IMG/VR virus record: IMGVR_UViG_3300031658_000003 | DNA length: 64,000 bases | Source of the DNA: an uncultured virus (IMG/VR IMGVR_UViG_3300031658_000003) | Lineage: Duplodnaviria; Heunggongvirae; Uroviricota; Caudoviricetes | Direction: 5' to 3' (one strand) | Shown here: positions 3,597 to 52,723 of the stretch, in pieces | Layout: each line of letters begins with the position of its first letter | Numbering within the stretch: the first letter of the stretch is position 1 | Notes under the pieces: model-generated | Told to the model about the DNA's origin: nothing | The model's input: only the letters and a program-made list of their open reading frames with translations | Database searches by the model: none | Translations under genes and position numbers: made by a program

Positions 3597-5225
3597 GTGG
3601 CTCTATTATATACAGATCAGGGCAGACAACAGTCTGCCAGATCATTTTTTCGAGACATCCATAATGAGAATGACTACTTCTATTTTTATGCAAGTAGAGC
3701 ATTGCCTTGGGAAAATGATGCTGTGCCTGATACTCCAGAGGATGCTCAGAAGCAGTTAGCTGAATGTAGAAAACAGACTCTTTTTGTTAAAAAGGTTCAG
3801 GCGGCTGATGCATGTCTTCTAGCAAGACGCATAGACTGGATCAACGGCACTGTATATGATGAGCATGATGACGGATATGAAGCGGCATTGACAGCAACGG
3901 GTGGAGCCACTACACTCTCTACGTCAAATTTTTATGTTATGACATCTGATTTCAATGTCTATAAATGTATTGAAAACAATAATGGTGGAACAAGCATAAG
4001 AAAGCCAACTAGTACTGGCACAGAAACATTCACATTGAATGATGGATACAAATGGAAATTCATGTTTCAGGTAAGTGTTGCTGATCGCGGTAAGTTTCTC
4101 ACATTGGATTATATTCCCGTGAGAAAAGTATCTGGATCAGGGCAACCTACATTTGATGTCAATGGTGAAATAGATGCTATTGTTGTTACTGCGGCTGGCT
4201 CTTCGTATGAAACAGTTCCTGCTGTCACTATAGAAGGTGATGGCACCGGTGCATCTGGTACTGCTGTAATGTCCGGTGGTGCTGTTCAAAGTATCACAAT
4301 CGATACAGAAGGATATGGATATTCATTTGCTAGAATTAGATTTACTGGTGGTGGCGGATCCGGTGCAGCCGCAACTGTCACCTTAGGTTCTTCTGAAACT
4401 CCTTCTTTGCAATCTGCGGTTGAATCAACTGCCATTAAAGGAACGATTGATAAAATAAAAGTTCTTACTACTGGTACAGATTATGTTACTAATGATGCTA
4501 TTGTAGTTATTACTGGTGACGGTTCTGGTGCCTCGGCATCACCTGTCATTAATGTGCGAGGAGAGATCACAGGAATTACTGTAATAGCTCCTGGTACAGG
4601 CTATACGTTTGCTGATATTACAATCACGCAGACTTTAGGTAGTGGAACAGGTGCTACGTTTAGACCTGTTTTGTCGCCCAGATTTGGACACGGTGCTAAT
4701 CCACAGAAAGAATTGTTTGCGAAGAATGTTGCAGTCAATGTCTCATTTATAAATGACAATCAAGACATTGTAATTGGAGATGAACTTAGATCGAATCCTC
4801 CAGCCGGAAATGATTTCAGACAGATAGGCATAGTCAAGAACATTCAAAATTTTGCACAGACTGCCAATTTTACTGAGATAGTAGGTACGCCGTGTTATGT
4901 AATCACAGTTTCTAATCCAGCTGTCTACAACTTGGACGACATCATTACATCATCTGATGGCGGTAAATTTATTGTAATACAAAAAGTCGATACAAATAAC
5001 GACGGCACATATGATGTAGTTTATTTGCAAAGATTTTATGGAAACATTACTGCAAGTTCTACTCTCGCCAACGTGACATCTGGTGTTTCTGGACTGAGTA
5101 TAAATACTGTTACTGCACCAGAGATTGATGTATATTCTGGAGACATTATCTACATGGATAACAGACGTCCTATAATTAGGGATGTAGATCAAACAGAAAC
5201 CATTAAAGTCGTATTTAAATTTTAG
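3597..5225 (+). CDS. gp8: Baseplate wedge subunit gp8
   Basis: RRIDWINGTVYD, FYVMTSDFNVYKCIENN, DGYKWKFMF, DFRQIGIVKN, SGDIIYMDNRRPI; GTG start. Confidence 0.85.
   Translation: MALLYTDQGRQQSARSFFRDIHNENDYFYFYASRALPWENDAVPDTPEDAQKQLAECRKQTLFVKKVQAADACLLARRIDWINGTVYDEHDDGYEAALTATGGATTLSTSNFYVMTSDFNVYKCIENNNGGTSIRKPTSTGTETFTLNDGYKWKFMFQVSVADRGKFLTLDYIPVRKVSGSGQPTFDVNGEIDAIVVTAAGSSYETVPAVTIEGDGTGASGTAVMSGGAVQSITIDTEGYGYSFARIRFTGGGGSGAAATVTLGSSETPSLQSAVESTAIKGTIDKIKVLTTGTDYVTNDAIVVITGDGSGASASPVINVRGEITGITVIAPGTGYTFADITITQTLGSGTGATFRPVLSPRFGHGANPQKELFAKNVAVNVSFINDNQDIVIGDELRSNPPAGNDFRQIGIVKNIQNFAQTANFTEIVGTPCYVITVSNPAVYNLDDIITSSDGGKFIVIQKVDTNNDGTYDVVYLQRFYGNITASSTLANVTSGVSGLSINTVTAPEIDVYSGDIIYMDNRRPIIRDVDQTETIKVVFKF
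5099..5106 (+). promoter_or_regulatory. Possible late promoter inside the gp8 3' end
   Basis: TATAAATA about 130 nt upstream of the 5238 gene. Confidence 0.5.
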
Positions 5226-14958: not shown

Positions 14959-15593
14959 CCTTCTATGTCTTCTATCATCATCTCCCACATATCTTTATGT
15001 GGAATAACAAATCCCAGAGTCTGTCTAGGAGAGTCTGAGCCTGCACAATGCCAGTAGTGTAAGTCCTCAGACTCTTTTTTGCCACCATAATAACCTACTT
15101 TACAAGACCATCCTATTGTGTCTTTCATGGTTATAATTTCTTTCGTCACCGAGTCACGATACCGGAAGAATCCTTTTCCATCTGGGCTGTGACTTATTAG
15201 AATATTATATCCCGGACAGTCCCAGTTGTTATGCCATCCCATGAATCCACCAGTTGGATAATAAACATGTACTGCATTGAACTTAGCACCAAGAAACTCC
15301 AGAAGTTCGTCACATAGTTCAGCCGATTTGTTTCTAAACTTAACTGGCACGAGTGGAGTATATTGAAAATCTGTCACTAGTGCGACTTCTGGAATTCCAC
15401 CGTGTGAGTCTTTCATCACTGATTCTAGATACTCAGTTGATGTCGCGCTTGCTAAAGTATGTCCCTCTATTCTTTTTTCATCGATTGGCAGTTTTAATCT
15501 TCCGTGACCGAAGTTCACAGCTTGGTCAAACCATTTTGTATATTCATCTAGTATGACAAGCAGTTCGGGAGACATTTTCTTTAATAGTCTCAT
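14955..15593 (-). CDS. 2OG-Fe(II) oxygenase-like (DSBH) protein
   Basis: YYPTGGFMGWHNN ... YWHCA..SPRQTLGF (His...His...Arg spacing of the DSBH family). Confidence 0.6.
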   Translation of the reverse strand: MRLLKKMSPELLVILDEYTKWFDQAVNFGHGRLKLPIDEKRIEGHTLASATSTEYLESVMKDSHGGIPEVALVTDFQYTPLVPVKFRNKSAELCDELLEFLGAKFNAVHVYYPTGGFMGWHNNWDCPGYNILISHSPDGKGFFRYRDSVTKEIITMKDTIGWSCKVGYYGGKKESEDLHYWHCAGSDSPRQTLGFVIPHKDMWEMMIEDIEG

Positions 15594-28616: not shown

Positions 28617-30191
28617 ATGGAATTATTTGGATATGAAATTAATCGGAAGAAGGCGCCTACAACTGAGAAATCTTTTGTAGCGCCTGACTCTGATGGTGCA
28701 GTTGAAAGTATAAACGCGGGTGGTCACTACGGCACCTACATGGACCTTGACGGTCAAGCTAATTCAGAAGCTGAAAGTATAAAGAGATATCGTGACATCT
28801 CTATGATGGCAGATGTTGACTCAGCAATAGAAGATATTATCAACGACAGCATTTCAAACATAGACGATGAGAAACCTGTCAAGCTAGACCTCGATGCAGT
28901 TGAACAATCTGCTACTGTCAAGAAAGCTATTCAGACAGAATTTGATAATGTAATCCGAATGATGAATTTCAACGATAGAGCGCAAGATTACTTTAGACGT
29001 TGGTATATTGATGGTAGAGTTTACTTTCATAAAGTAATTGATACTGCTAAGCCTAGAGATGGCATCAAAGACATTCGCTATATTGATCCCAGAAAGATCC
29101 ACAAAGTGCGTAATGTCAAGAAAGCTAAAGATGAAAAAGGCGTTAGCTTTATAAAAGAAATTAACGAATACTTCATATATAACGATAAAGGCATATCGGC
29201 AAAAGCTGGGCAGATCAGTACACCATCAACCCAAGATCAGGCTATAAAAATAACCAAAGATGCAATTACATATTGCACTTCTGGATTAGTAGACCAAGAC
29301 AAAAATATGCCATTGTCTTATCTACACAAAGCTATTCGTCCTGCTAACCAGTTAAGAATGATGGAAAATGCCGTAGTGATATATCGTATCACACGAGCAC
29401 CAGAAAGACGCATCTTCTATATAGATGTGGGCAATCTTCCAACGGGTCGTGCTGAACAATACTTAAAAGATATTATGGACAGATATCGCAATAAACTCGT
29501 ATACGATGCAAGTACTGGTGAGATACGAGATGATAAAAAGTTTATGTCAATGCTTGAAGACTTTTGGCTCCCACGAAAAGAAGGTGGTAGAGGAACTGAG
29601 ATTCAAACATTGCCTGGTGGTCAGAGTCTAGGTCAGATTGAAGACGTAGATTACTTCCAACGCAAGCTATATCAGTCATTGAATGTACCAATGTCAAGGC
29701 TAGAAGCCCAAAGTGGATTAAACTTTGGACGTACTGCTGAGATTACACGAGATGAGTTGAAGTTTACTAAGTTCATTGCCAAATTGCGTAGACGTTTTTC
29801 TACTATCTTTGATGATGTACTGAAGACTCAGTTGGTGTTGAAGGGTATCATAACTGAAGCAGACTGGGAAAATATCAGAGAACAATTGCAATATACTTTT
29901 GCTTCTGATGTTTACTATACTGAATCAAAAGAGCAAGAGATTCTTAGAAGCCGAGTTGAAGTTCTTAATGGTGTTGCGCCTTATATGGGCACACTATATA
30001 GTAAGTCATACGTTCAAAAGAATATCTTGAAACTCACTGACAAAGAAATTTCAGACATAGCTAATGAAATTGCAGACGTGCCTGAAGAAGAACATATGGT
30101 GGGAGACTCATTAGAGGCTCACCGCGAAAGGGAGCACCAGAAAGATATGTCTGGAGAACCCGATGAAGAACAAACAAGTGAAGGAGAATAA
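28617..30191 (+). CDS. gp20: Portal protein gp20
   Basis: WYIDGR, YRITRAPERRIFYIDVGNLP, MLEDFWLPRKEGGRGTEI. Confidence 0.97.
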   Translation: MELFGYEINRKKAPTTEKSFVAPDSDGAVESINAGGHYGTYMDLDGQANSEAESIKRYRDISMMADVDSAIEDIINDSISNIDDEKPVKLDLDAVEQSATVKKAIQTEFDNVIRMMNFNDRAQDYFRRWYIDGRVYFHKVIDTAKPRDGIKDIRYIDPRKIHKVRNVKKAKDEKGVSFIKEINEYFIYNDKGISAKAGQISTPSTQDQAIKITKDAITYCTSGLVDQDKNMPLSYLHKAIRPANQLRMMENAVVIYRITRAPERRIFYIDVGNLPTGRAEQYLKDIMDRYRNKLVYDASTGEIRDDKKFMSMLEDFWLPRKEGGRGTEIQTLPGGQSLGQIEDVDYFQRKLYQSLNVPMSRLEAQSGLNFGRTAEITRDELKFTKFIAKLRRRFSTIFDDVLKTQLVLKGIITEADWENIREQLQYTFASDVYYTESKEQEILRSRVEVLNGVAPYMGTLYSKSYVQKNILKLTDKEISDIANEIADVPEEEHMVGDSLEAHREREHQKDMSGEPDEEQTSEGE

Positions 30192-34944: not shown

Positions 34945-35532
34945 GTGGCGTTCAATCCAATTGCAACAGTAGCAGAAGGCACATTTGCGGCTAGTAACCC
35001 CAGTGAACTGGACTACTTGCGCCCAAATGGGTTTACGTTTCAGGTACACAACATGCCCAACGTATCTTTCTTCTGTCAAGCTGCCAACATTCCTGAAATA
35101 TCTATGGGCTATCCTACTCAAGTTACTCCGCTAGTAGATATTGCTTATCCGGGAGACAAGCTCCAGTTCGGTGAGTTGATGATTAGATTCCTTATACAGG
35201 AAGACATGACTAACTATAATGAACTATATGACTGGCTGCGTGGTCTCGGCTTTCCAGACAAGCACAGTGAGTTCACAGACTACATCAAGAGCCAAACCTA
35301 TCGCACGGCAAGTGCCAACGCCAGCTCAAGGGAAGGCATAGCACAAGTATCTGATGCAACTTTATTTGTGCTAGACTCAAATAACAATCCTAACGTGAAG
35401 ATCACATTCAAAGATGCATTTCCAATCTCACTGTCTGGCTTAGACTTTGACATTGTCAACGGTACTGGCGATTACTTCATTGGTATCGCGGCATTCAAGT
35501 ATAGGATATTTGAAATAGAAAAGGTAGCTTAA
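34945..35532 (+). CDS. gp3: Tail completion protein gp3
   Basis: LRPNGFTF..PNVSFFCQAANIP, PGDKLQFG, EDMTNY.ELYDW, FKDAFPISLSGL; position between gp23 and uvsY. Confidence 0.85.
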   Translation: MAFNPIATVAEGTFAASNPSELDYLRPNGFTFQVHNMPNVSFFCQAANIPEISMGYPTQVTPLVDIAYPGDKLQFGELMIRFLIQEDMTNYNELYDWLRGLGFPDKHSEFTDYIKSQTYRTASANASSREGIAQVSDATLFVLDSNNNPNVKITFKDAFPISLSGLDFDIVNGTGDYFIGIAAFKYRIFEIEKVA

Positions 35533-37949: not shown

Positions 37950-37977
37950 ATTATACAGTGTTCCACGAAAATGTCAA
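37950..37977 (-). promoter_or_regulatory. Antisense sigma70-type promoter
   Basis: Minus strand TTGACA-16 nt-TATAAT. Confidence 0.65.
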
Positions 37978-41311: not shown

Positions 41312-42978
41312 TTACTTTTAAAACATTAAAGTGGAAGAATTTTCTCTCTACTGGTAATGCGTTTACAGAGATTGATTTTACTCGCAGTACTAGTACATTG
41401 ATTGTTGGTGAGAATGGCAGTGGCAAATCTACTATGCTAGATGCCCTATGTTTTGTTTTGTTTAATAAACCATTCAGAGCAATTAATAAGCCTCAGTTAG
41501 TTAATGCTGTTAACGACAAAGCACTGGAAGTAGAAATTGAGTTTGCTGTCGGTACTAATGAGTACAAAATTAGACGAGGTATTAAGCCCAACTATTTTGA
41601 GATTTATTGTAATGCCAAAATGATAGATCAAGATGCCGCACTCAGAGATATGCAAAAGTATCTTGAGGAAGCTATTCTAAAATTGAACTACAAATCATTT
41701 ACTCAGATTGTTATATTAGGCAGTGCTTCATTTACACCGTTCATGCAGTTGCCTCTAGGTAGTAGAAGAGAAATCATAGAAGATATTCTTGATATTCAAA
41801 TATTCACTGTGATGAATGTTGTACTAAAAGAAAAGATAAATAAGTTGAAGGATACTATACGGGACATAGAATCCGAAGTTGAGATCAGTAAGTCCAAAGC
41901 TATTCTCCAACAGAAGTATCTTTCTACTCTGGAGAATGATAAACAAATCAAAATAGCAGACATGCAAGGACAGATTAATGCAATCGAGGACTCGATTAAG
42001 AAATTCGAGGAACAAGCAACAACAACAGTCACAGCGAAGGATCTTCTGGGAAATCCTAAAGAGAGAATCAAAAAACTCAGAAACTTTAGAGATCAATTCA
42101 CAACCCAAATCACAAAAGTAAAAAGAGAGTTAGATTTTTATGAAAAGCACGATGACTGTCCGACCTGCAAGCAAGGTATTTCGCATGACTTCAAAGCAGA
42201 GATTAAAATTGAACGACACAGAAAAATTGGTGAGTTACAAGAAGCAAATAAGAAAATTGAAAATGAATTCACGCAACTAAATGATGCACTAGAAAAGTTT
42301 GTCGATTTGTCAGACCAGTTGGTAGATATAAACAATGAGATTATTACCAATCAAAAGTTTCTGACAAAGCTGAATGCTGAGATATCACATGCAAAAGTTA
42401 ATGTTGCAGATATCACAGAAGAAAAAGACAAGCTGAAAACCCTTGCGAAAGTTGTTGTGGAAAAAGAGCATGATAAGTCTATCAAGAATGAAGAGGGTCA
42501 CTACTTAAAACTAGCCGCTTCACTATTGAAAGACACTGGCATAAAGACTAGAATCATTCGCCAGTATTTGCCTGCTATAAATGCATTAGTCAATAAGTAC
42601 TTAGCCTCGATGGACTTCTTTGTTCAATTTGATTTGGATGAGAAGTTCAACGAGACTATTAAGTCCAGACACAGAGACAAATTTAGTTATGCATCATTCA
42701 GTGAAGGTGAGAAGCAAAGAATTGATTTGGCATTACTGTTTACATGGCGTACCATTGCTAAGATGAAGAACAGTGCCGCAACAAATTTGTTAATACTAGA
42801 TGAAGTTTTTGATAGTTCTTTGGACAATAATGGTACTGACTACGTTATGTCCTTACTAAATACTATAGGTGAAGATGCGAATGTATTTGTAATCTCACAC
42901 AAAGGAGACATCCTGTTTGATAAATTCAGGAGTGTTATTAAATTTGAAAAGAAATATAACTATTCAGTAATTTCATAG
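41308..42978 (+). CDS. gp46: Recombination ATPase gp46 (Rad50/SbcC-like)
   Basis: GENGSGKS, CPTC zinc hook, FSEGEK, LILDEVFD. Confidence 0.95.
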   Translation: MITFKTLKWKNFLSTGNAFTEIDFTRSTSTLIVGENGSGKSTMLDALCFVLFNKPFRAINKPQLVNAVNDKALEVEIEFAVGTNEYKIRRGIKPNYFEIYCNAKMIDQDAALRDMQKYLEEAILKLNYKSFTQIVILGSASFTPFMQLPLGSRREIIEDILDIQIFTVMNVVLKEKINKLKDTIRDIESEVEISKSKAILQQKYLSTLENDKQIKIADMQGQINAIEDSIKKFEEQATTTVTAKDLLGNPKERIKKLRNFRDQFTTQITKVKRELDFYEKHDDCPTCKQGISHDFKAEIKIERHRKIGELQEANKKIENEFTQLNDALEKFVDLSDQLVDINNEIITNQKFLTKLNAEISHAKVNVADITEEKDKLKTLAKVVVEKEHDKSIKNEEGHYLKLAASLLKDTGIKTRIIRQYLPAINALVNKYLASMDFFVQFDLDEKFNETIKSRHRDKFSYASFSEGEKQRIDLALLFTWRTIAKMKNSAATNLLILDEVFDSSLDNNGTDYVMSLLNTIGEDANVFVISHKGDILFDKFRSVIKFEKKYNYSVIS

Positions 42979-45702: not shown

Positions 45703-45731
45703 TTGACTTTTACCAAAATACCTGTCATAAT
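45703..45731 (+). promoter_or_regulatory. Sigma70-type early promoter
   Basis: TTGACT-17-CATAAT, TGn extended -10, AT-rich upstream element. Confidence 0.75.
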
Positions 45732-45760
45732 GTACTTTGAGAATGAGAGAGGGTATACCA

Positions 45761-48049
45761 ATGGAAGTAAAAAGCAAAAGCATGTTAGCCAAACTACTGG
45801 CTACAGAGGATATCAGTGTTGAGCATCAGAATGTTCCCACCGCACTGTTCGACCTTAAGAATCGCAAGATCATCCTTCCCCGCTGGAAGGAAATGTCAGT
45901 ACATCTATATGATCTGTTTGTCGGTCATGAAATTAGCCACGGCTTAGAAACTCCTGCAGAAGGTTGGCACGATGCTGTATGTGACTCCGGTCAGGGCTTC
46001 AAGTCTTTCCTAAATGTGATAGAAGATTGTCGCATTGAGAAAAAAGTCAAAGCACGTTACCCTGGTCTAGTCAAGTCTATGGCTCTTGGTTATAAAGAGT
46101 TGATGGAGATGGACTTCTTTGGACTCAAGGGTCGTGACACGGATACTCTTCCACTGATCGATAAGATCAATCTAAAATTCAAGTGTGGTGCCATGCTCGG
46201 CATCAACTTCTTAGAAGAAGAATTGCCTTTCGTTACTGCTACTGAAAATGTTGACACTTGGGAAGATACTGTCAGAGTAGCCAACGAACTTTATGAGTAC
46301 AGCAAAACTGAACAAGCCATGCAAGATGCTTTAGAGCCTCAAGCGGATGAGTTCAATGATGACTGGGATGAAGACATAGATTCTGAACCCACCGACGAGT
46401 ATTCAGACGCGCCTCAAGAAAGTGAAGAAGAAAGTGACCAAGCTGAAGAAGAGACTGAAGAAACCGGCAGTGCATCCAAAGATGAAGATGAAAAGCCTTC
46501 CGAATTAGAAGAAGAGTCTGAGTCTACCGATGTCAAGCAAGTCGGAAATGATATCATGGAAGGAACTCCTGATCCAGAATCAATGACTGATAAAGCCTTT
46601 CGTAATGCAGAAGAAATGCTTGTCGAAATGTCCGACAAAGATATTATGACTGTTAACTTTCCAAAGATAAAGTCTGATGTATTTGTTATGCAATCTTCTG
46701 AAGTATGGGACTGGACACCAGAGTATAAAAAAGGTACTTACTATAGCCCACAAGAAAATATGACTGACAATGTTGAAGTTGAGAACAAGCTGTTCAATGA
46801 TTTTCAAACTCGCAATAAGTCTGCGATCAACCTTCTAGTCCAACAGTTTGAGATGCGCCGCAAAGCTACCTCATTAAAGAAAGCCCGTGAGAATAAGACT
46901 GGTATGCTTAATGATAAAAAGTTGTGGGCATACAAGCTAACGGATGATCTCTTTCTATCAACTACTACTACTCCAAATGGTCAGAACCACGGCATGTTTA
47001 TGTTTGTTGATATGTCTGGTAGTATGTTTCTAGAAATGGCTAATGTTGTCGAGCAGTTATTGATTCAAGTATCCTTCTGCAAAAAAGTCGGCATTCCGTT
47101 TGATGTTTACGGATTCAGTAATGCAGGTAGAAATGCCGCTGAGTACAATGAACGGCGCAAAATTGTGCAAAAAGCCCAGAGCAAAAAGCCTGGTGATATG
47201 TTCATCGATGATGAAAACTTCCAGTTACTACAATTAATTTCCTCTGAGTTATCATCTCCTATGTATACCAAAGCATTCAAAGGGCTTCTGGGATGGGCAA
47301 CTACTTACATGAGCAAAAACACCCGTCTAGATGAAGAGAGAGTATGGCAAGATAGATACAACCAACCGCGTCATATGTATTTGTCAACCACGCCTCTGGC
47401 TTCTGCGATGTTAGCTGGTCGTGATCTTGCTAATGAATTCAAACAGCGTAATCGCCTTGAAGTTCTGAACACAATTATTCTGACCGATGGATACAATACT
47501 GATAAAATGTTTGTGGTTGAAGATTGTATGGAACTAGAAAATACTGACTATGAGCAAGTGACATTTCGCCACAGCCCAAACGTAGTTGGTGAAGTTTACA
47601 TTAAAGAAGGTGCAATATCAACCAAGCATGTCATCTCAGGAATTTATGGCAGAGCAAGCCGTCAGGTAGGATATCAAGATTACTTCTTGGCACTACTGAA
47701 GCACTACCAAGCAACCACTAATTCGCGTATGATATCATTCAACATTGTAGGTGCAAAAGCATCCTCTGTCAGAGATGCATACTTTGCCGCAATTGGCAAG
47801 TATGATTACGAAGGATTTCAAACTAAGTACAAGACCTTCCGTTCTGAGCGATTCATGGAAGTTCCTAATGCTGTCGGATACGATAGTATGTTTATGCTTA
47901 TGGGTGGCAAAGGGTTAGAAGTAGACACCTCCGACATGGAAGTTAAGTCCAACTCCAAAGGTGATCTGAAGCGTGGATTCATGAAGTTCGCCAAGGGACG
48001 CAGTGCCAGCCGAGTGTTTTTGAATCGATTCATCGATAAAGTTGCATAA
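45761..48049 (+). CDS. CobT-like protein: HExxH metallopeptidase-like N-terminus, acidic linker, vWA domain
   Basis: LAKLLATEDI, GHEISH, NVIEDCRIE, DMSGSM (MIDAS), TPL, LTDG; adjacent to a MoxR AAA gene. Confidence 0.75.
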   Translation: MEVKSKSMLAKLLATEDISVEHQNVPTALFDLKNRKIILPRWKEMSVHLYDLFVGHEISHGLETPAEGWHDAVCDSGQGFKSFLNVIEDCRIEKKVKARYPGLVKSMALGYKELMEMDFFGLKGRDTDTLPLIDKINLKFKCGAMLGINFLEEELPFVTATENVDTWEDTVRVANELYEYSKTEQAMQDALEPQADEFNDDWDEDIDSEPTDEYSDAPQESEEESDQAEEETEETGSASKDEDEKPSELEEESESTDVKQVGNDIMEGTPDPESMTDKAFRNAEEMLVEMSDKDIMTVNFPKIKSDVFVMQSSEVWDWTPEYKKGTYYSPQENMTDNVEVENKLFNDFQTRNKSAINLLVQQFEMRRKATSLKKARENKTGMLNDKKLWAYKLTDDLFLSTTTTPNGQNHGMFMFVDMSGSMFLEMANVVEQLLIQVSFCKKVGIPFDVYGFSNAGRNAAEYNERRKIVQKAQSKKPGDMFIDDENFQLLQLISSELSSPMYTKAFKGLLGWATTYMSKNTRLDEERVWQDRYNQPRHMYLSTTPLASAMLAGRDLANEFKQRNRLEVLNTIILTDGYNTDKMFVVEDCMELENTDYEQVTFRHSPNVVGEVYIKEGAISTKHVISGIYGRASRQVGYQDYFLALLKHYQATTNSRMISFNIVGAKASSVRDAYFAAIGKYDYEGFQTKYKTFRSERFMEVPNAVGYDSMFMLMGGKGLEVDTSDMEVKSNSKGDLKRGFMKFAKGRSASRVFLNRFIDKVA

Positions 48050-48074
48050 AAGATGAAAATAATTGAGAAAACAC

Positions 48075-48102
48075 TTGACTTTCCCATAAAACCTGCTATA
48101 AT
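48075..48102 (+). promoter_or_regulatory. Sigma70-type early promoter
   Basis: TTGACT-16-TATAAT, TGn extended -10; similar to the 45703 promoter. Confidence 0.75.
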
Positions 48103-48163
48103 GGTATAGTAAAGTCGAGTTAAAGAAGTTAAATTGAATAATCCTTTTGAGAGAGGTCAGATT

Positions 48164-49363
48164 ATGAGTGAGTTAAATAGTGAATTGTTGAACGCTCTAC
48201 AGGCAATAGATACTGCCGGTGGTACGCTTAACCGAAAGCAAATTTCAGATGTGGCAGTGAGTCTCGGACTCGCCAAACAGGGTTCCGCAGTCGGCTATAT
48301 AGTTGGCAATTATGCGGTTGCTCGTGGCGTCTATGACGTTTCATTGCCCGCAAATTCTGTACCTGCACAAGCCCCAAAGCCTATTGCAGTCATACAGTCC
48401 AAATCACCTACCCAAGACCTGCCACAAGAAGCGGCAAGAGTCCTAACTCAGGCTAAATTATCGGTGACTATCGAGAACTTAATTCCTCCCACAGACAGTA
48501 CTTATGTTCCGTTTGGATTCTTTAAAGACCTGACTAGAATTGTCAAGTCTGGAATGTTTTATCCTACGTTTATCTCTGGTCTATCCGGTAACGGTAAGAC
48601 TATGATGGTCGAACAAGTTTGTGCAAAACTAGGGCGAGAAGCCTTGCGAGTCAATATCTCCATTGAGACTGATGAAGATGATTTGATTGGTGGCAATACA
48701 CTTGTCGATGGTAACGTAGTTTACCGAGAGGGTCCTGTTCTCACTGCAATGAAACGTGGTGCAGTACTAGTTCTGGATGAGATCGACCGTGGCTCTAACA
48801 AGCTAATGTGCTTACAAGCTATCATGGAAGGCAAGCCCTACTACAATAAGAAGACTGGTGAGATTGTCTCTCCTGAACCTGGCTTCAATATCATTGCTAC
48901 TGCGAATACTAAAGGTCGTGGATCAGATGATGGTAAGTTTATGGGTGCTCAGATATTAGATGAGGCATTCCTTGAGCGTTTTGCAATCACTGTCGAGCAA
49001 GAATATCCATCGGCTGTCCAAGAGAAGAAAATTGTTCTTGGTAAGATGCGAGTTGCCGACTGCATTGATGATACCTTTGCTACCAATTTGGTGACATGGG
49101 CTGAAGTGATCCGAAAGACTTTCTATGAGGGTGCAATCGATGAATTGATTTCTACTCGCCGACTGGAACACATTGTCAAAGCATTCTCAGTGTTTGGTGA
49201 TAAGATGAAAGCCATCGAGTTATGTGTAAACAGGTTCGATACCGACACCAAGCAAGCCTTCTTAGACCTTTACACTAAGGTTGATGATGAAGTATCAATG
49301 CCAGAGACAGAAAATGAGACATCCGAAACTGTCGAAGTCCAAAATACAGAGGTAAACTTCTAA
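48164..49363 (+). CDS. cobS: CobS-like MoxR AAA+ ATPase
   Basis: GLSGNGKT, LVLDEID, ATANTKGRG, EAFLERF, ISTRRL. Start moved to ATG 48164. Confidence 0.85.
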   Translation: MSELNSELLNALQAIDTAGGTLNRKQISDVAVSLGLAKQGSAVGYIVGNYAVARGVYDVSLPANSVPAQAPKPIAVIQSKSPTQDLPQEAARVLTQAKLSVTIENLIPPTDSTYVPFGFFKDLTRIVKSGMFYPTFISGLSGNGKTMMVEQVCAKLGREALRVNISIETDEDDLIGGNTLVDGNVVYREGPVLTAMKRGAVLVLDEIDRGSNKLMCLQAIMEGKPYYNKKTGEIVSPEPGFNIIATANTKGRGSDDGKFMGAQILDEAFLERFAITVEQEYPSAVQEKKIVLGKMRVADCIDDTFATNLVTWAEVIRKTFYEGAIDELISTRRLEHIVKAFSVFGDKMKAIELCVNRFDTDTKQAFLDLYTKVDDEVSMPETENETSETVEVQNTEVNF

Positions 49364-49596
49364 TGGCTATTATTGAACGCAAAGAGTATCATCAAATGAT
49401 ATGCTATTTCACCTATGACATTCCCGATGAGGATATCATTGAAAAATGGGGTAGCGTGAGTACCCTAGAGGATCTACTGGCAGAGTATGATGATGATGCC
49501 GTTGATTGGATGGCAGATTTTGGATTTGACCGCTATGATGATCTGTGGACAGATCGGAAAGGTGGTTATGAAATTGATTGGGAAATAAAAGTCTAA
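49363..49596 (+). CDS. Small acidic hypothetical protein
   Basis: TAATG coupling at both ends. Confidence 0.65.
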   Translation: MAIIERKEYHQMICYFTYDIPDEDIIEKWGSVSTLEDLLAEYDDDAVDWMADFGFDRYDDLWTDRKGGYEIDWEIKV

Positions 49597-49925
49597 TGGC
49601 TATTGAATATAGATTTAAAGAAGACAAGTTAATAGCGGAGTTTGTAAAGTACATTGATTCGACTTATGATGGTCACTATGGTCAAGGTGGACTACAGTCA
49701 TCTGAGATTATCGTAGACCGAGGACACGGACAAGGTTTCTTTCATGGAAACATCGACAAGTATAACGGTCGATACGGCAAAAAGGGTGACAGTCCTGCCG
49801 AATGGCGTAAAGACATTATCAAGATTATCCATTATGGATTTCTCGCCCTCTATGAACATGATAGAATCACCGCAGAAGAAGTACAAGAAAAAATCGATAC
49901 TGATACTTTCGGGGTTAAGAGTTAG
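49596..49925 (+). CDS. Conserved phage protein (DUF3310-like)
   Basis: YIDSTYDGHY, FFHGNIDKYNGRYGKK, DIIKIIHY. Confidence 0.6.
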   Translation: MAIEYRFKEDKLIAEFVKYIDSTYDGHYGQGGLQSSEIIVDRGHGQGFFHGNIDKYNGRYGKKGDSPAEWRKDIIKIIHYGFLALYEHDRITAEEVQEKIDTDTFGVKS

Positions 49926-49941
49926 GCTGTAGATCACCAGA

Positions 49942-50018
49942 ATCCGCAAGGATACCTCGGTAGTTATGTGTGTGACCTCTCTCTCAATTGCAAAGGCACA
50001 TAGCTATCGAGGTTTTTT
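49942..50018 (+). ncRNA. Candidate structured small RNA/terminator with an anti-Shine-Dalgarno loop
   Basis: ATCC-GCAA-GGAT tetraloop hairpin; 17-bp stem 49954-49970/49997-50013 (2 G-U pairs) plus a T-run; loop contains TGACCTCTCTCTCAA. Confidence 0.6.
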
Positions 50019-50022
50019 CTGT

Positions 50023-50030
50023 TATAAATA
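50023..50030 (+). promoter_or_regulatory. Late promoter
   Basis: TATAAATA after the hairpin. Confidence 0.75.
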
Positions 50031-50063
50031 GACTTAGACCTTAGCCCATTATGGAGAAAGAAT

Positions 50064-50426
50064 ATGGCATATGCCGCCAGAGTAGAACAAACAAGAACCA
50101 ATACTGACCAACACTGGTTTATATTTGATACTGATGTGGTTTCCAACTCGGCTACGGAAGCCAGAGGTGCCGCCTTGAAAGAATTTTTAGATTCTAAAGT
50201 AGCTGACAATACCATGGTAACCACACTAGAATTCTCAGATGATCACCTTTCTTGGACTTGGATAAATACCTTTCCGGACGAGGCAGCATTCAATGCCTTT
50301 GATGTAGACTGGCAGGCTTTCAAAGCATCTAGTCTAGATGGAATTGAGCCGTTTGAAGAGACGGTGTTTACGGACTGGCTGACTGCTACTGGTTCTACTG
50401 TGACAACAACATTTGTTACTACTTAA
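50064..50426 (+). CDS. Hypothetical late protein
   Basis: GGAG RBS, own late promoter, 120 aa. Confidence 0.6.
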   Translation: MAYAARVEQTRTNTDQHWFIFDTDVVSNSATEARGAALKEFLDSKVADNTMVTTLEFSDDHLSWTWINTFPDEAAFNAFDVDWQAFKASSLDGIEPFEETVFTDWLTATGSTVTTTFVTT

Positions 50427-50430
50427 ACTA

Positions 50431-50459
50431 TTGACATACCCCCAAATTTATTATATAAT
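50431..50459 (+). promoter_or_regulatory. Consensus sigma70 promoter
   Basis: TTGACA-17-TATAAT before gp45. Confidence 0.85.
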
Positions 50460-50491
50460 GATTGTAATGTTTATAACTGTGAGGAAGACCT

Positions 50492-51145
50492 GTGAAGATA
50501 TCAAAAGCAACGATGGAAGTTCTGAAGAATTTTGCTTCAATCAACAGCAATATTCTTGTCCGTAAGGGCAATGTTCTATCAACCATATCAACTGGCGTTA
50601 ACATATTCTGTCGTGCAGAGGTAACAGAAACCTTTGACCGAGAGTTCGCCATCTATGACTTGAATAGTCTACTAGCTTTACTGACCATGATGGAAGATAC
50701 TGATGTCGATTTCGGTGAAGACTGTATCACTATCAGTAAAGACACCAGTGAATTCAAATATTACTATGCTGATAAGACCATCATTGTGGCAGCCCCGGAT
50801 AAGACAATCGAGGTAGACAATCACTATGAATTCAATCTTACTGCTAAGATGATTGAAACCATGAAGCGAGCCGCATCTGTTATCTCTGCTCCTATGTTGA
50901 GTGTTGTGGCTAAGAATGGCAAGGTAGTGATGAGCGTTGGTGATCCTTCAACTCCTCGAAGTAATACATACACTCAAGAGATTGGTGAGTTTGATGGTGA
51001 TTTTGATTGCCGCATACCAATCGAGAACTTTAAAGTTATGAGTGGTGATTATGTCACTGTTCTAAGCAAGAAGAAGTTTATGTACTTGCACAATGACTCC
51101 GCACAATATTGGTTAGCACTTGATCCCAATTCACAGATAGGATAA
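50492..51145 (+). CDS. gp45: Sliding clamp gp45
   Basis: VLKNFASINSNI, FAIYDLN, YWLALD. Confidence 0.9.
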   Translation: MKISKATMEVLKNFASINSNILVRKGNVLSTISTGVNIFCRAEVTETFDREFAIYDLNSLLALLTMMEDTDVDFGEDCITISKDTSEFKYYYADKTIIVAAPDKTIEVDNHYEFNLTAKMIETMKRAASVISAPMLSVVAKNGKVVMSVGDPSTPRSNTYTQEIGEFDGDFDCRIPIENFKVMSGDYVTVLSKKKFMYLHNDSAQYWLALDPNSQIG

Positions 51146-51787: not shown

Positions 51788-52723
51788 ATGGAAAACAAAG
51801 AATTTTTATTCGTTGAGCGATATCGTCCACGGACACTAGATGAATGCATCTTGCCCGACTCTCTACTTGCAGTCTTCAAGAAGTTTGTTGCCGCCGGAGA
51901 GATCCCAAATATGTTGTTGTGTGGTACTGCTGGTACTGGTAAGACTACAGTAGCCCGCGCACTATGCACTGAATTGGGGTGTGACTATATTGTAGTCAAC
52001 GGCTCGGAAGAGTCTGGTATCGATGTCCTGCGTACCAAGATCAAGAATTTCGCAAGTACCATGTCGTTTGAAAACAAACCCAAGGTTGTCATTCTAGATG
52101 AAGCAGATTATCTAAATCCCAACTCTACTCAGCCAGCCCTGCGTGGGTTCATTGAAGAGTTCTCAAAGAACTGTAGGTTCATATTCACTTGCAACTTTAA
52201 GAATCGCATCATTGAGCCACTGCATAGCCGAACTACCGTAGTTGATTTCAAGCTGGACAAGTCAGAACGACCAGAAATGGCTGGAAGATTTCACAAGCGT
52301 ATGAAGTTCATCCTCGATGAAGAGGGCGTAAAGTATTCCGATAAGATACTAGCTGAACTGCTCAAGAAATATTTTCCAGATTATCGTAGGGTACTGAATG
52401 AACTTCAGCGGTACTCTGTTGGCGGCACAATCGATGAAGGTATTCTAAGTAATCTCGCGGAGATAAATACTAAGGGTTTAATCGATAGTCTTAAAGATAA
52501 AGACTTCAAGAAAATGCGTCAATGGGTTGCCAACAATGTTGATAGTGATCCACAAGGCATCTATCGTAAAGTTTATGACGCATTGATTGACAAAGTAAAG
52601 CAAGTACCACATTTGGTACTGTTGATTGCTGACTACCAATACAAAGCGGCATTCGTGGCTGATCAAGAAATCAATCTAACTGCATGTCTCGTAGACATTA
52701 TGGCAAGCGTGGATATGAATTGA
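51788..52723 (+). CDS. gp44: Clamp loader large subunit gp44
   Basis: ERYRP, GTAGTGKT, ILDEAD, PLHSR, FPDYRR. Confidence 0.95.
   Translation: MENKEFLFVERYRPRTLDECILPDSLLAVFKKFVAAGEIPNMLLCGTAGTGKTTVARALCTELGCDYIVVNGSEESGIDVLRTKIKNFASTMSFENKPKVVILDEADYLNPNSTQPALRGFIEEFSKNCRFIFTCNFKNRIIEPLHSRTTVVDFKLDKSERPEMAGRFHKRMKFILDEEGVKYSDKILAELLKKYFPDYRRVLNELQRYSVGGTIDEGILSNLAEINTKGLIDSLKDKDFKKMRQWVANNVDSDPQGIYRKVYDALIDKVKQVPHLVLLIADYQYKAAFVADQEINLTACLVDIMASVDMN

Follow-up and report, generated by a model that had tools for sequence, protein, structure and literature searches.

The window analysed here, a stretch of 64,000 nucleotides, belongs to a marine, uncultured myovirus of the T4-like type, and the features around the hairpin element described below are collected in Table 1. 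A megablast search with positions 48000–51000 produced no match in GenBank phages, and the nearest isolates are far removed, with 53% identity for the cobS-like protein (to CobS of Pelagibacter phage HTVC008M) and at most 41% for gp45. The cobT-like protein gave an additional weak match to a cobalamin-biosynthesis phrog, and a Pfam search assigned it no family. The order of cobT, cobS, small genes, hairpin element, late promoter, small gene and gp45 is kept in 4/4 records compared. The phage has a T4-type late-promoter layout alongside host sigma-70-like early promoters; TATAAATA occurs 20 times in the window (19 on the + strand, 1 on the −), mostly 20–60 nt 5′ of a GGAGA-type ribosome-binding site (RBS).

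Table 1 Features of the cobT-cobS-gp45 region, in positions of the window.
Feature	Position	Strand	Details
Early promoter of the cobT-like gene	45703..45731	+	sigma-70-type, TTGACT-17-CATAAT; 10/12 matches, TG extended −10
cobT-like leader	45738..45760	+	RBS GAGAGAGG at 45745-45752; predicted loop partner
cobT-like gene	45761..48049	+	762 aa; PHROG phrog_459 ('peptidase'), E 7.8e-175
Early promoter of the cobS-like gene	48075..48102	+	sigma-70-type, TTGACT-16-TATAAT; 11/12 matches
cobS-like leader	48109..48163	+	loop complement of 11 nt at 48149-48159; transcription start inferred from the −10 box
cobS-like AAA+ ATPase gene	48164..49363	+	399 aa; Pfam AAA_5 (1.5e-18) and CbbQ_C
Two small genes at the operon end	49363..49925	+	77 aa; DUF3310-like, 109-115 aa
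Mini-hairpin	49942..49953	+	4 bp, GNRA tetraloop
Long stem, 5′ arm	49955..49971	+	folding and covariation
Loop GTGACCTCTCTCTCAATTGCAAAG	49972..49995	+	CU tract 49976-49985; anti-leader 11-mer 49973-49983
Long stem, 3′ arm	49996..50012	+	
T6 run	50013..50018	+	intrinsic-terminator tail
Late promoter TATAAATA	50023..50030	+	T4-type, directly 3′ of the hairpin element; same layout in relatives
Small gene between hairpin element and gp45	50064..50426	+	120 aa, no family
gp45 sliding clamp	50492..51145	+	own early-type promoter at 50431-50459
gp44-like clamp loader	at 51788		

The element opens with a mini-hairpin that reads ATCC-GCAA-GGAT, a GCAA-tetraloop hairpin at the place given in an earlier preliminary description of this DNA; relatives carry GTAA or GAAA in place of the GCAA tetraloop. 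Direct reading of the window gives a long stem of 17 contiguous pairs, three of them G.U; the length agrees with the preliminary description, whose coordinates were one base off and which had counted two G.U pairs. The loop, previously noted as oversized at about 25 nt, measures 24 nt. RNA folding, which had been named as a check, gave −33.6 kcal/mol with a z-score of −4.78 for positions 49930–50025, far more stable than shuffled sequences (folding as well in 0/200 cases). Neither a sigma-70-type nor a TATAAATA site, which would give the element a promoter of its own, was found in the interval from the upstream stop codon (49925) to the hairpin.

We queried IMG/VR with the upstream DUF3310-like protein and three gp45 proteins and retrieved many syntenic loci. 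A large-loop hairpin lies at the same place in at least 12 sequence variants (A, A2, F, B1, B3, C, D, E1, E3, H, I1 and I2), 3′ of the cobT-cobS-small-gene block and just 5′ of the late promoter, the small gene and gp45; many related phages have the same operon and no such hairpin. The stem sequences are unrelated between lineages (e.g. CCTCGGTAGTTATGTG, CTCAGACTGTCACTT, GGGGCGGCGGTGT, GAGGCGCAGCGGC and GACCCTCGGGACC), and GTGACCTCTCTCTC in the loop is conserved in lineages A, A2 and F despite their differing stems. At closer range, L003 and L004 show two compensatory stem changes together with a tetraloop change from GCAA to GTAA. In L085–L087 (~3820–3990), the small gene before gp45 has been lost and TATAAATA has decayed to TTATAAAAAATA; hairpin, loop and T-run are intact. 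An exact 14-mer scan of IMG/VR added no new lineage, the matches listed being mostly chance matches in unrelated, G+C-rich contigs. A CU-loop hairpin candidate in L065 was rejected, as it lies inside an apparent coding sequence and gives no covariance-model match. As a separate observation, the late promoter of lineages C and D (L024:3352-3385, L070:3368-3400) is enclosed in the loop of another small palindrome (CTTCTCTT-ATAAAT-AAGAGAAG), in which one difference between the two lineages is preserved as a G.U pair.

A covariance model was built from 10 sequences, the resulting alignment comprising 11 distinct sequences. It found 18 matches in 66 sources (767 kb), one copy per genome, and 0 matches in the 27 hairpin-free loci of related lineages. 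Both-sided, compensatory changes were present in 12/13 modelled pairs, which answers the stem-covariation check named in the preliminary description; paired cells made up 86.9% of the alignment versus 31–61% in controls with the partners slid, and the covariation score was reached by 0/500 shuffles. GU or UG pair types occur in 6/13 modelled pairs and, together with the three G.U pairs in the window, indicate an RNA from the + strand and not its complement. The element is almost certainly a real structured RNA.

The element was also compared with intrinsic terminators. In the window and in a complete relative (G004), the two genomes scanned, this element is the longest hairpin with a T-run after it, and its stem of 17–19 bp, at the folding energy given above, has the stability of a terminator hairpin. 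A terminator consensus scan that allows loops of 3–8 nt did not list it, the 24-nt loop falling outside that small-loop range. The tails vary, from T6 in the window and T7 in L085 to only ATTTTAT in lineage F, and are C-interrupted or poor in B3, C and D, so that termination is doubtful in those three lineages. The sole match in an RNA library came from metatranscriptome run X1 (contigs only, share 0.06), in which one 282-nt contig, from an L003-like relative, covers the hairpin and continues past it; this contig is certain proof of neither transcription nor a 3′ end. Elsewhere in the window, positions 15031–15080 hold another terminator-like structure with an oversized loop, a 9-bp stem (GAGTCTGAG/CTCAGACTC) with a 26-nt loop that is not CU-rich, followed by T6.

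We then examined the loop. As the preliminary description had reported, loop positions 49973-49983, TGACCTCTCTC, form a perfect reverse complement to GAGAGAGGTCA at 48149-48159, a site that stops 4 nt short of the cobS-like ATG at 48164. The shorter GAGAGAGG is found three times in the window, at the cobT-like RBS (45745), at the cobS-like RBS (48149) and, as antisense, in the loop; in the window, no genes but these two carry the motif, as had been noticed. Shuffled sequences contained at least 3 copies of the 8-mer in 24/100 cases and at least 2 copies of the 11-mer at no more than 1 mismatch in 33/100. These bare motif counts are within chance for a 64-kb window, and the case rests on the position of the match and on the relatives.

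After a rough gene call on the window and on contigs of five relatives, all start regions were ranked by predicted duplex with the loop of the same contig. The cobS and cobT leaders ranked 1 and 2 among 71 start regions in the window, 1 and 3 among 124 in G005, 6 and 1 among 60 in G007, 1 and 11 among 111 in G008, 4 and 13 among 208 in G004, and 4 and 26 among 52 in G009. In the window, the predicted duplexes reach −21.4 kcal/mol for the cobS leader and −20.6 kcal/mol for the cobT leader, and the cobT leader is the best non-self match of the loop when the whole window is scanned on both strands. Equally strong Shine-Dalgarno sequences (SDs) of other genes reach only about −10 to −11 kcal/mol, so the loop does not simply reproduce the ribosomal anti-SD. 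Dinucleotide-shuffled loops reached the observed energy in 8, 0, 5, 5, 8 and 13 of 300 trials in the six contigs, and shuffled CU-rich loops reached the observed rank in 14–48 of 300; CU-rich composition accounts for part of the loop-leader signal. A further candidate pairing, between the 3′ part of the loop (CAAAGG) and a CCTTT 5′ of the RBS, does not persist in L003, L085 and L088 and was rejected. Co-folding of leader and element with RNAcofold returned nested alternatives only, a loop-to-leader helix being beyond its representation.

In each variant, the loop holds a stretch of 7–13 nt that exactly complements the cobS or cobT leader of the same phage, the longest complements to the own cobS leader in 11 variants being 11, 11, 10, 8, 9, 8, 7, 11, 12, 13 and 10 nt; for the most repetitive loops, shuffles often equal the exact-match length, as they do in 20–22% of trials with B3 (cobS), D and I. 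Summed over 7 lineage classes, the cognate matches amount to 71 nt, a total that 0/1,854 derangements reach (mean 47.8, maximum 64), with the reservation that the lineages share ancestry, which limits the independence of such counts. The hypothesis had already been fixed when lineages E, H and I were retrieved, and these therefore serve as an out-of-sample test; their four variants show matches of 11, 12, 13 and 10 nt to their own cobS. Loops and cobS/cobT leaders thus differ together across lineages, the co-change that the preliminary description had named as a check.

The matched sequences themselves are lineage-specific. In A/F the matched leader sequence is GAGAGAGGTCA, in B1 ATAGTGAGGAG in the cobT leader, in B3 GAGAGGAGT, in H the 13-nt ACTTGTGAGGAGA, and in E and I TATAGTTAGGAA and GAGAGAGTGA; in C/D there are two blocks, GGAGAGA at the SD and GGAAAATC over cobS codons 1–3, the second being opposed by GATTTTCC or ATTTTCC in the loop. 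The pairing takes in bases that do not belong to an SD, namely GGTCA in A/F, ATAGTG of the cobT leader in B1, ACTTGT in H, TATAGTTAGGAA in E and GAGAGAGTGA in I. The cobS match of lineage E occupies the leader's 5′ end, ~20 nt upstream of the SD, and the loop is accordingly not always an anti-SD. Matrices of predicted energy on cobS are clearly diagonal for A/F, C/D and H, weakly so for B1 and B3, and not for E and I; for lineages E, A, H (cobT) and I, the own leader is not the top-scoring one.

Upstream of the leaders, the cobT and cobS promoters had been described as alike, and they do share a common design (TTGACTTT...ACCTG-YATAAT); this design is the general early-promoter pattern of the clade. 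The 16-nt cobS RBS block CCTTTTGAGAGAGGTC is invariant in four lineages (A, A2 and F among them), and the promoter and the remaining leader have diverged. A consensus early promoter with an immediate AGGGTGTGTCCCTTTAAAGA-like start, which forms a small hairpin (AGGG...CCCT), occurs at 37977 (−) in the window, at 35457 (+) and 134894 (−) in G004 and at 91650 (−) in G005; these starts run opposite to the neighbouring genes and may represent a conserved short transcript or regulatory leader.

The complete relative G004 (165 kb; L115–L123) shows a further leader pattern. Eight of its early genes, at 29698, 31318, 35620, 36025, 40581, 141514, 143968 and 162673, have the leader motif W-W-W-T-GAGAGAG(G/A) 12–45 nt 3′ of a TTGAC...CCTGCTATAAT-type promoter; set against the GGAGA(A) of late genes, these GAGAGAG leaders indicate that RBS type differs by temporal class in this phage. 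The same genome has ~370 nt without an ORF after TATAAATA (L117:2520-2900, G004 ~42520-42900), which include a second hairpin (a ACCTCTCTCAAAACACC loop on an 8-bp stem, two of whose pairs are G.U), a GACTCC-TGAGTAAGAGT motif that is repeated, and one more hairpin at the end. This region, which gave no match in Rfam, may represent a small RNA that is expressed late and displays a related CU loop.

The reading that we favour starts from the operon. Between the cobT/cobS promoters and the element there is no other strong hairpin with a T-run, and the genes are tightly packed on the same strand; early transcripts from both promoters would run to the terminal hairpin, and the cobT-cobS operon through the hairpin is probably a single transcript. 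The element would then form the 3′ end of the early operon mRNA as a structured, conserved RNA made up of an optional 5′ mini-hairpin, the long stable hairpin, an unpaired CU-rich loop of 19–32 nt and a U-rich tail. Most likely the hairpin would terminate or insulate early transcription just 5′ of the late promoter, with the RNA presumably ending at the T-run in a nuclease-resistant 3′ end. The loop is predicted to pair with the leaders of the first genes of its own operon (cobS and/or cobT), usually over the SD and in C/D over the start codon as well, either in cis, joining the 5′ and 3′ ends of one transcript, or in trans, through a stable 3′ fragment acting on other transcripts. The likeliest effect of such pairing in the cell would be that 30S binding is blocked and translation of both proteins is capped; its direction, repression or stabilisation, we infer by analogy. 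We assign a probability of roughly 0.55 to this reading, in which a 3′-end anti-leader or anti-SD loop pairs with its own operon's leaders, in cis or in trans, and limits their translation. Functional pairing of the loop with the cobS/cobT leaders stands, like that reading, slightly above even odds, and that one or another of the pairing-based variants holds, all counted together, we regard as quite likely.

A tentative extension, less likely than not, would make the operon time itself. The cobT-cobS transcript would be translatable only during its own synthesis, and the finished loop or a released 3′ fragment would close both leaders; in some lineages the accumulated fragment might also close other early genes with GA leaders. 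If this were true, marine T4-like phages would possess an RNA-only early shut-off whose specificity is reset by co-mutation of loop and leader.

Wider still is the proposal that a trans-acting, 3′-derived sRNA shuts off a whole class of early mRNAs marked by GA-repeat leaders, as an RNA counterpart of the protein-based shut-off of T4. We consider this unlikely. It draws on G004, in which 5/5 plus-strand GAGAGAGG sites are RBSs just 3′ of sigma-70-type promoters, early leaders hold 8/12 plus-strand GAGAGAG runs (16 runs on both strands) and three more start regions are among the best-ranked targets of the loop, and on an architecture of 5′ mini-hairpin and terminator that resembles stable sRNAs as the cited portions of PMC2790875 present them. 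In the window, however, only cobS and cobT carry the motif, and the element has no promoter of its own; predicted pairing does not differ significantly between early and late start regions (p = 0.39 and 0.66, with imperfect start calls that include cobT and two G004 genes). A strong gp44-like match in G004 is lost in G005, a close relative whose loop is identical, and in lineages B, C and D the GA-repeat does not mark early leaders. The preliminary description had named a class of early mRNAs as the targets, a claim not supported in that form, as it is the own operon's two leaders that are conserved as partners from lineage to lineage and the GA-repeat is general in G004 only; a class-level role in lineage F is possible.

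Alternatively, the element could be an ordinary insulating terminator or 3′ stabiliser, with a loop that binds a protein (e.g. S1 or a phage RNA-binding protein) or is idle, and the leader match could be a by-product of composition. The hairpin's rank as the longest with a T-run in both genomes scanned, its constant position just 5′ of a late promoter and the CU-rich shuffles that often still place cobS and cobT high all suit such a terminator, but composition leaves unexplained the cognate matches of 10–13 nt with non-purine flanks, the cognate sum is reached by 0/1,854 non-cognate assignments, and the loop sequence is kept where stems are rewritten, all of which makes this account distinctly unlikely.

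The same pairing might also have the opposite effect, in that a tie between loop and leader joins the mRNA ends, protects against 5′-end-dependent decay and stabilises the transcript. We judge this improbable: the complement does reach the predicted first transcript bases (TATAG...) in the B, E and cobT leaders and the lineage E cobS match leaves the SD free, but the transcription start is deduced from the −10 box only, and the match of most lineages covers the SD, in C/D together with the start codon, which should block initiation.

In T4, the RBSs of lysozyme and I-TevI are masked in early read-through RNA and late transcripts escape. A comparable masking of the RBS of the next gene (50064) by the loop, with late transcripts from TATAAATA escaping, fits the layout of an anti-SD-like tract, a late promoter and then an RBS (GAGAGG in L003, TGAGGA in L024) but is highly improbable, given a complement of only 4–6 nt that is inconsistent across lineages, a predicted energy in the window of −10.5 kcal/mol vs −21 for cobS, and the retention of hairpin and loop in L085–87 despite the loss of the downstream gene and its late promoter.

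If the favoured reading of an own-operon anti-leader loop is true, RNA-only post-transcriptional feedback is added to phage early gene control, and a need to dose the CobS-like AAA+ protein and its CobT-like partner tightly and together is indicated. The at least 12 natural matched loop-leader pairs directly enable compensatory-mutation experiments and intermolecular covariation statistics.

Searching the whole window against Rfam 15 gave 0 matches at the gathering threshold; the best local match, MIR2629 (25.2 bits vs a threshold of 60), is a chance hairpin match and was discarded. Full-text searches covering the main texts of open-access articles found no published description of the hairpin family, in keeping with the earlier remark that it was not recognised as a described element. 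A phage parallel is the post-transcriptional shut-off of early genes in T4, where RegB cleaves at GGAG in early SDs and RegA represses. Common to both is a phage-encoded translational shut-off via the ribosome-binding sites of early mRNAs; the agents in T4 are proteins, whereas the present system would rely on RNA alone, and it is two leaders, and not a whole class, that are conserved as its partners.

The nearest mechanism, as far as the sections of the source used here describe it, is the 3′UTR/SD pairing of icaR mRNA in Staphylococcus aureus, in which an anti-SD (UCCCCUG) in the 3′UTR pairs with the SD of the mRNA's own leader, blocking initiation and leading to RNase III cleavage (PMC3868564). 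In both cases the 3′ untranslated end of an mRNA is complementary to the SD region on the same transcript (here a probable single transcript, with 11 nt for cobS in the window), and action in cis or in trans is left both ways in that account (PMC3868564) as it is here. By the same account, icaR has a long 3′UTR on a bacterial monocistronic mRNA, whereas here the complement lies in the terminal-hairpin loop of a phage operon of 1.9–4.3 kb; in place of UCCCCUG there is a CU-repeat or lineage-specific tract that matches two leaders.

C-rich (UCCC) loop sRNAs of Firmicutes (RNAIII, RsaA-K and RsaE/RoxS) bind target SDs through unpaired loop motifs and prevent initiation, according to the cited portions of PMC2790875. 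They resemble the element in displaying a pyrimidine-rich motif in a loop and in combining a 5′ hairpin with a 3′ terminator, a probable one in the element; as characterised in those portions, they differ in that each is a stand-alone gene, has its own promoter, carries a short fixed UCCC and acts on many targets, whereas the element is promoterless, sits at an operon end and has a loop that tracks the leaders of one operon. The window loop carries CCUCUCUCUC without UCCC, and among the loops of the 12 variants UCCCC occurs in lineage D only. The Cuckoo/CcsR RNAs of Alphaproteobacteria, in the excerpts drawn on here, consist of 2–4 adjacent hairpins with CCUCCUCCC in each loop (PMC4615179, PMC8034643). 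On that description they share with the element highly variable stems, a conserved anti-SD-like loop and a 3′UTR origin, and the element departs from them in its single large-loop hairpin with a GNRA mini-hairpin, the absence of CCUCCUCCC, its phage origin and the lack of an Rfam match. Since it lacks the family-defining motif, hairpin number or own promoter, we do not class the element as a member of the icaR-type, UCCC-sRNA or Cuckoo/CcsR families. Anti-SD loops and 3′UTR-5′UTR pairing are already known from a few bacteria; the present case adds a conserved, covarying candidate family in abundant marine T4-like phages, one without an Rfam entry.
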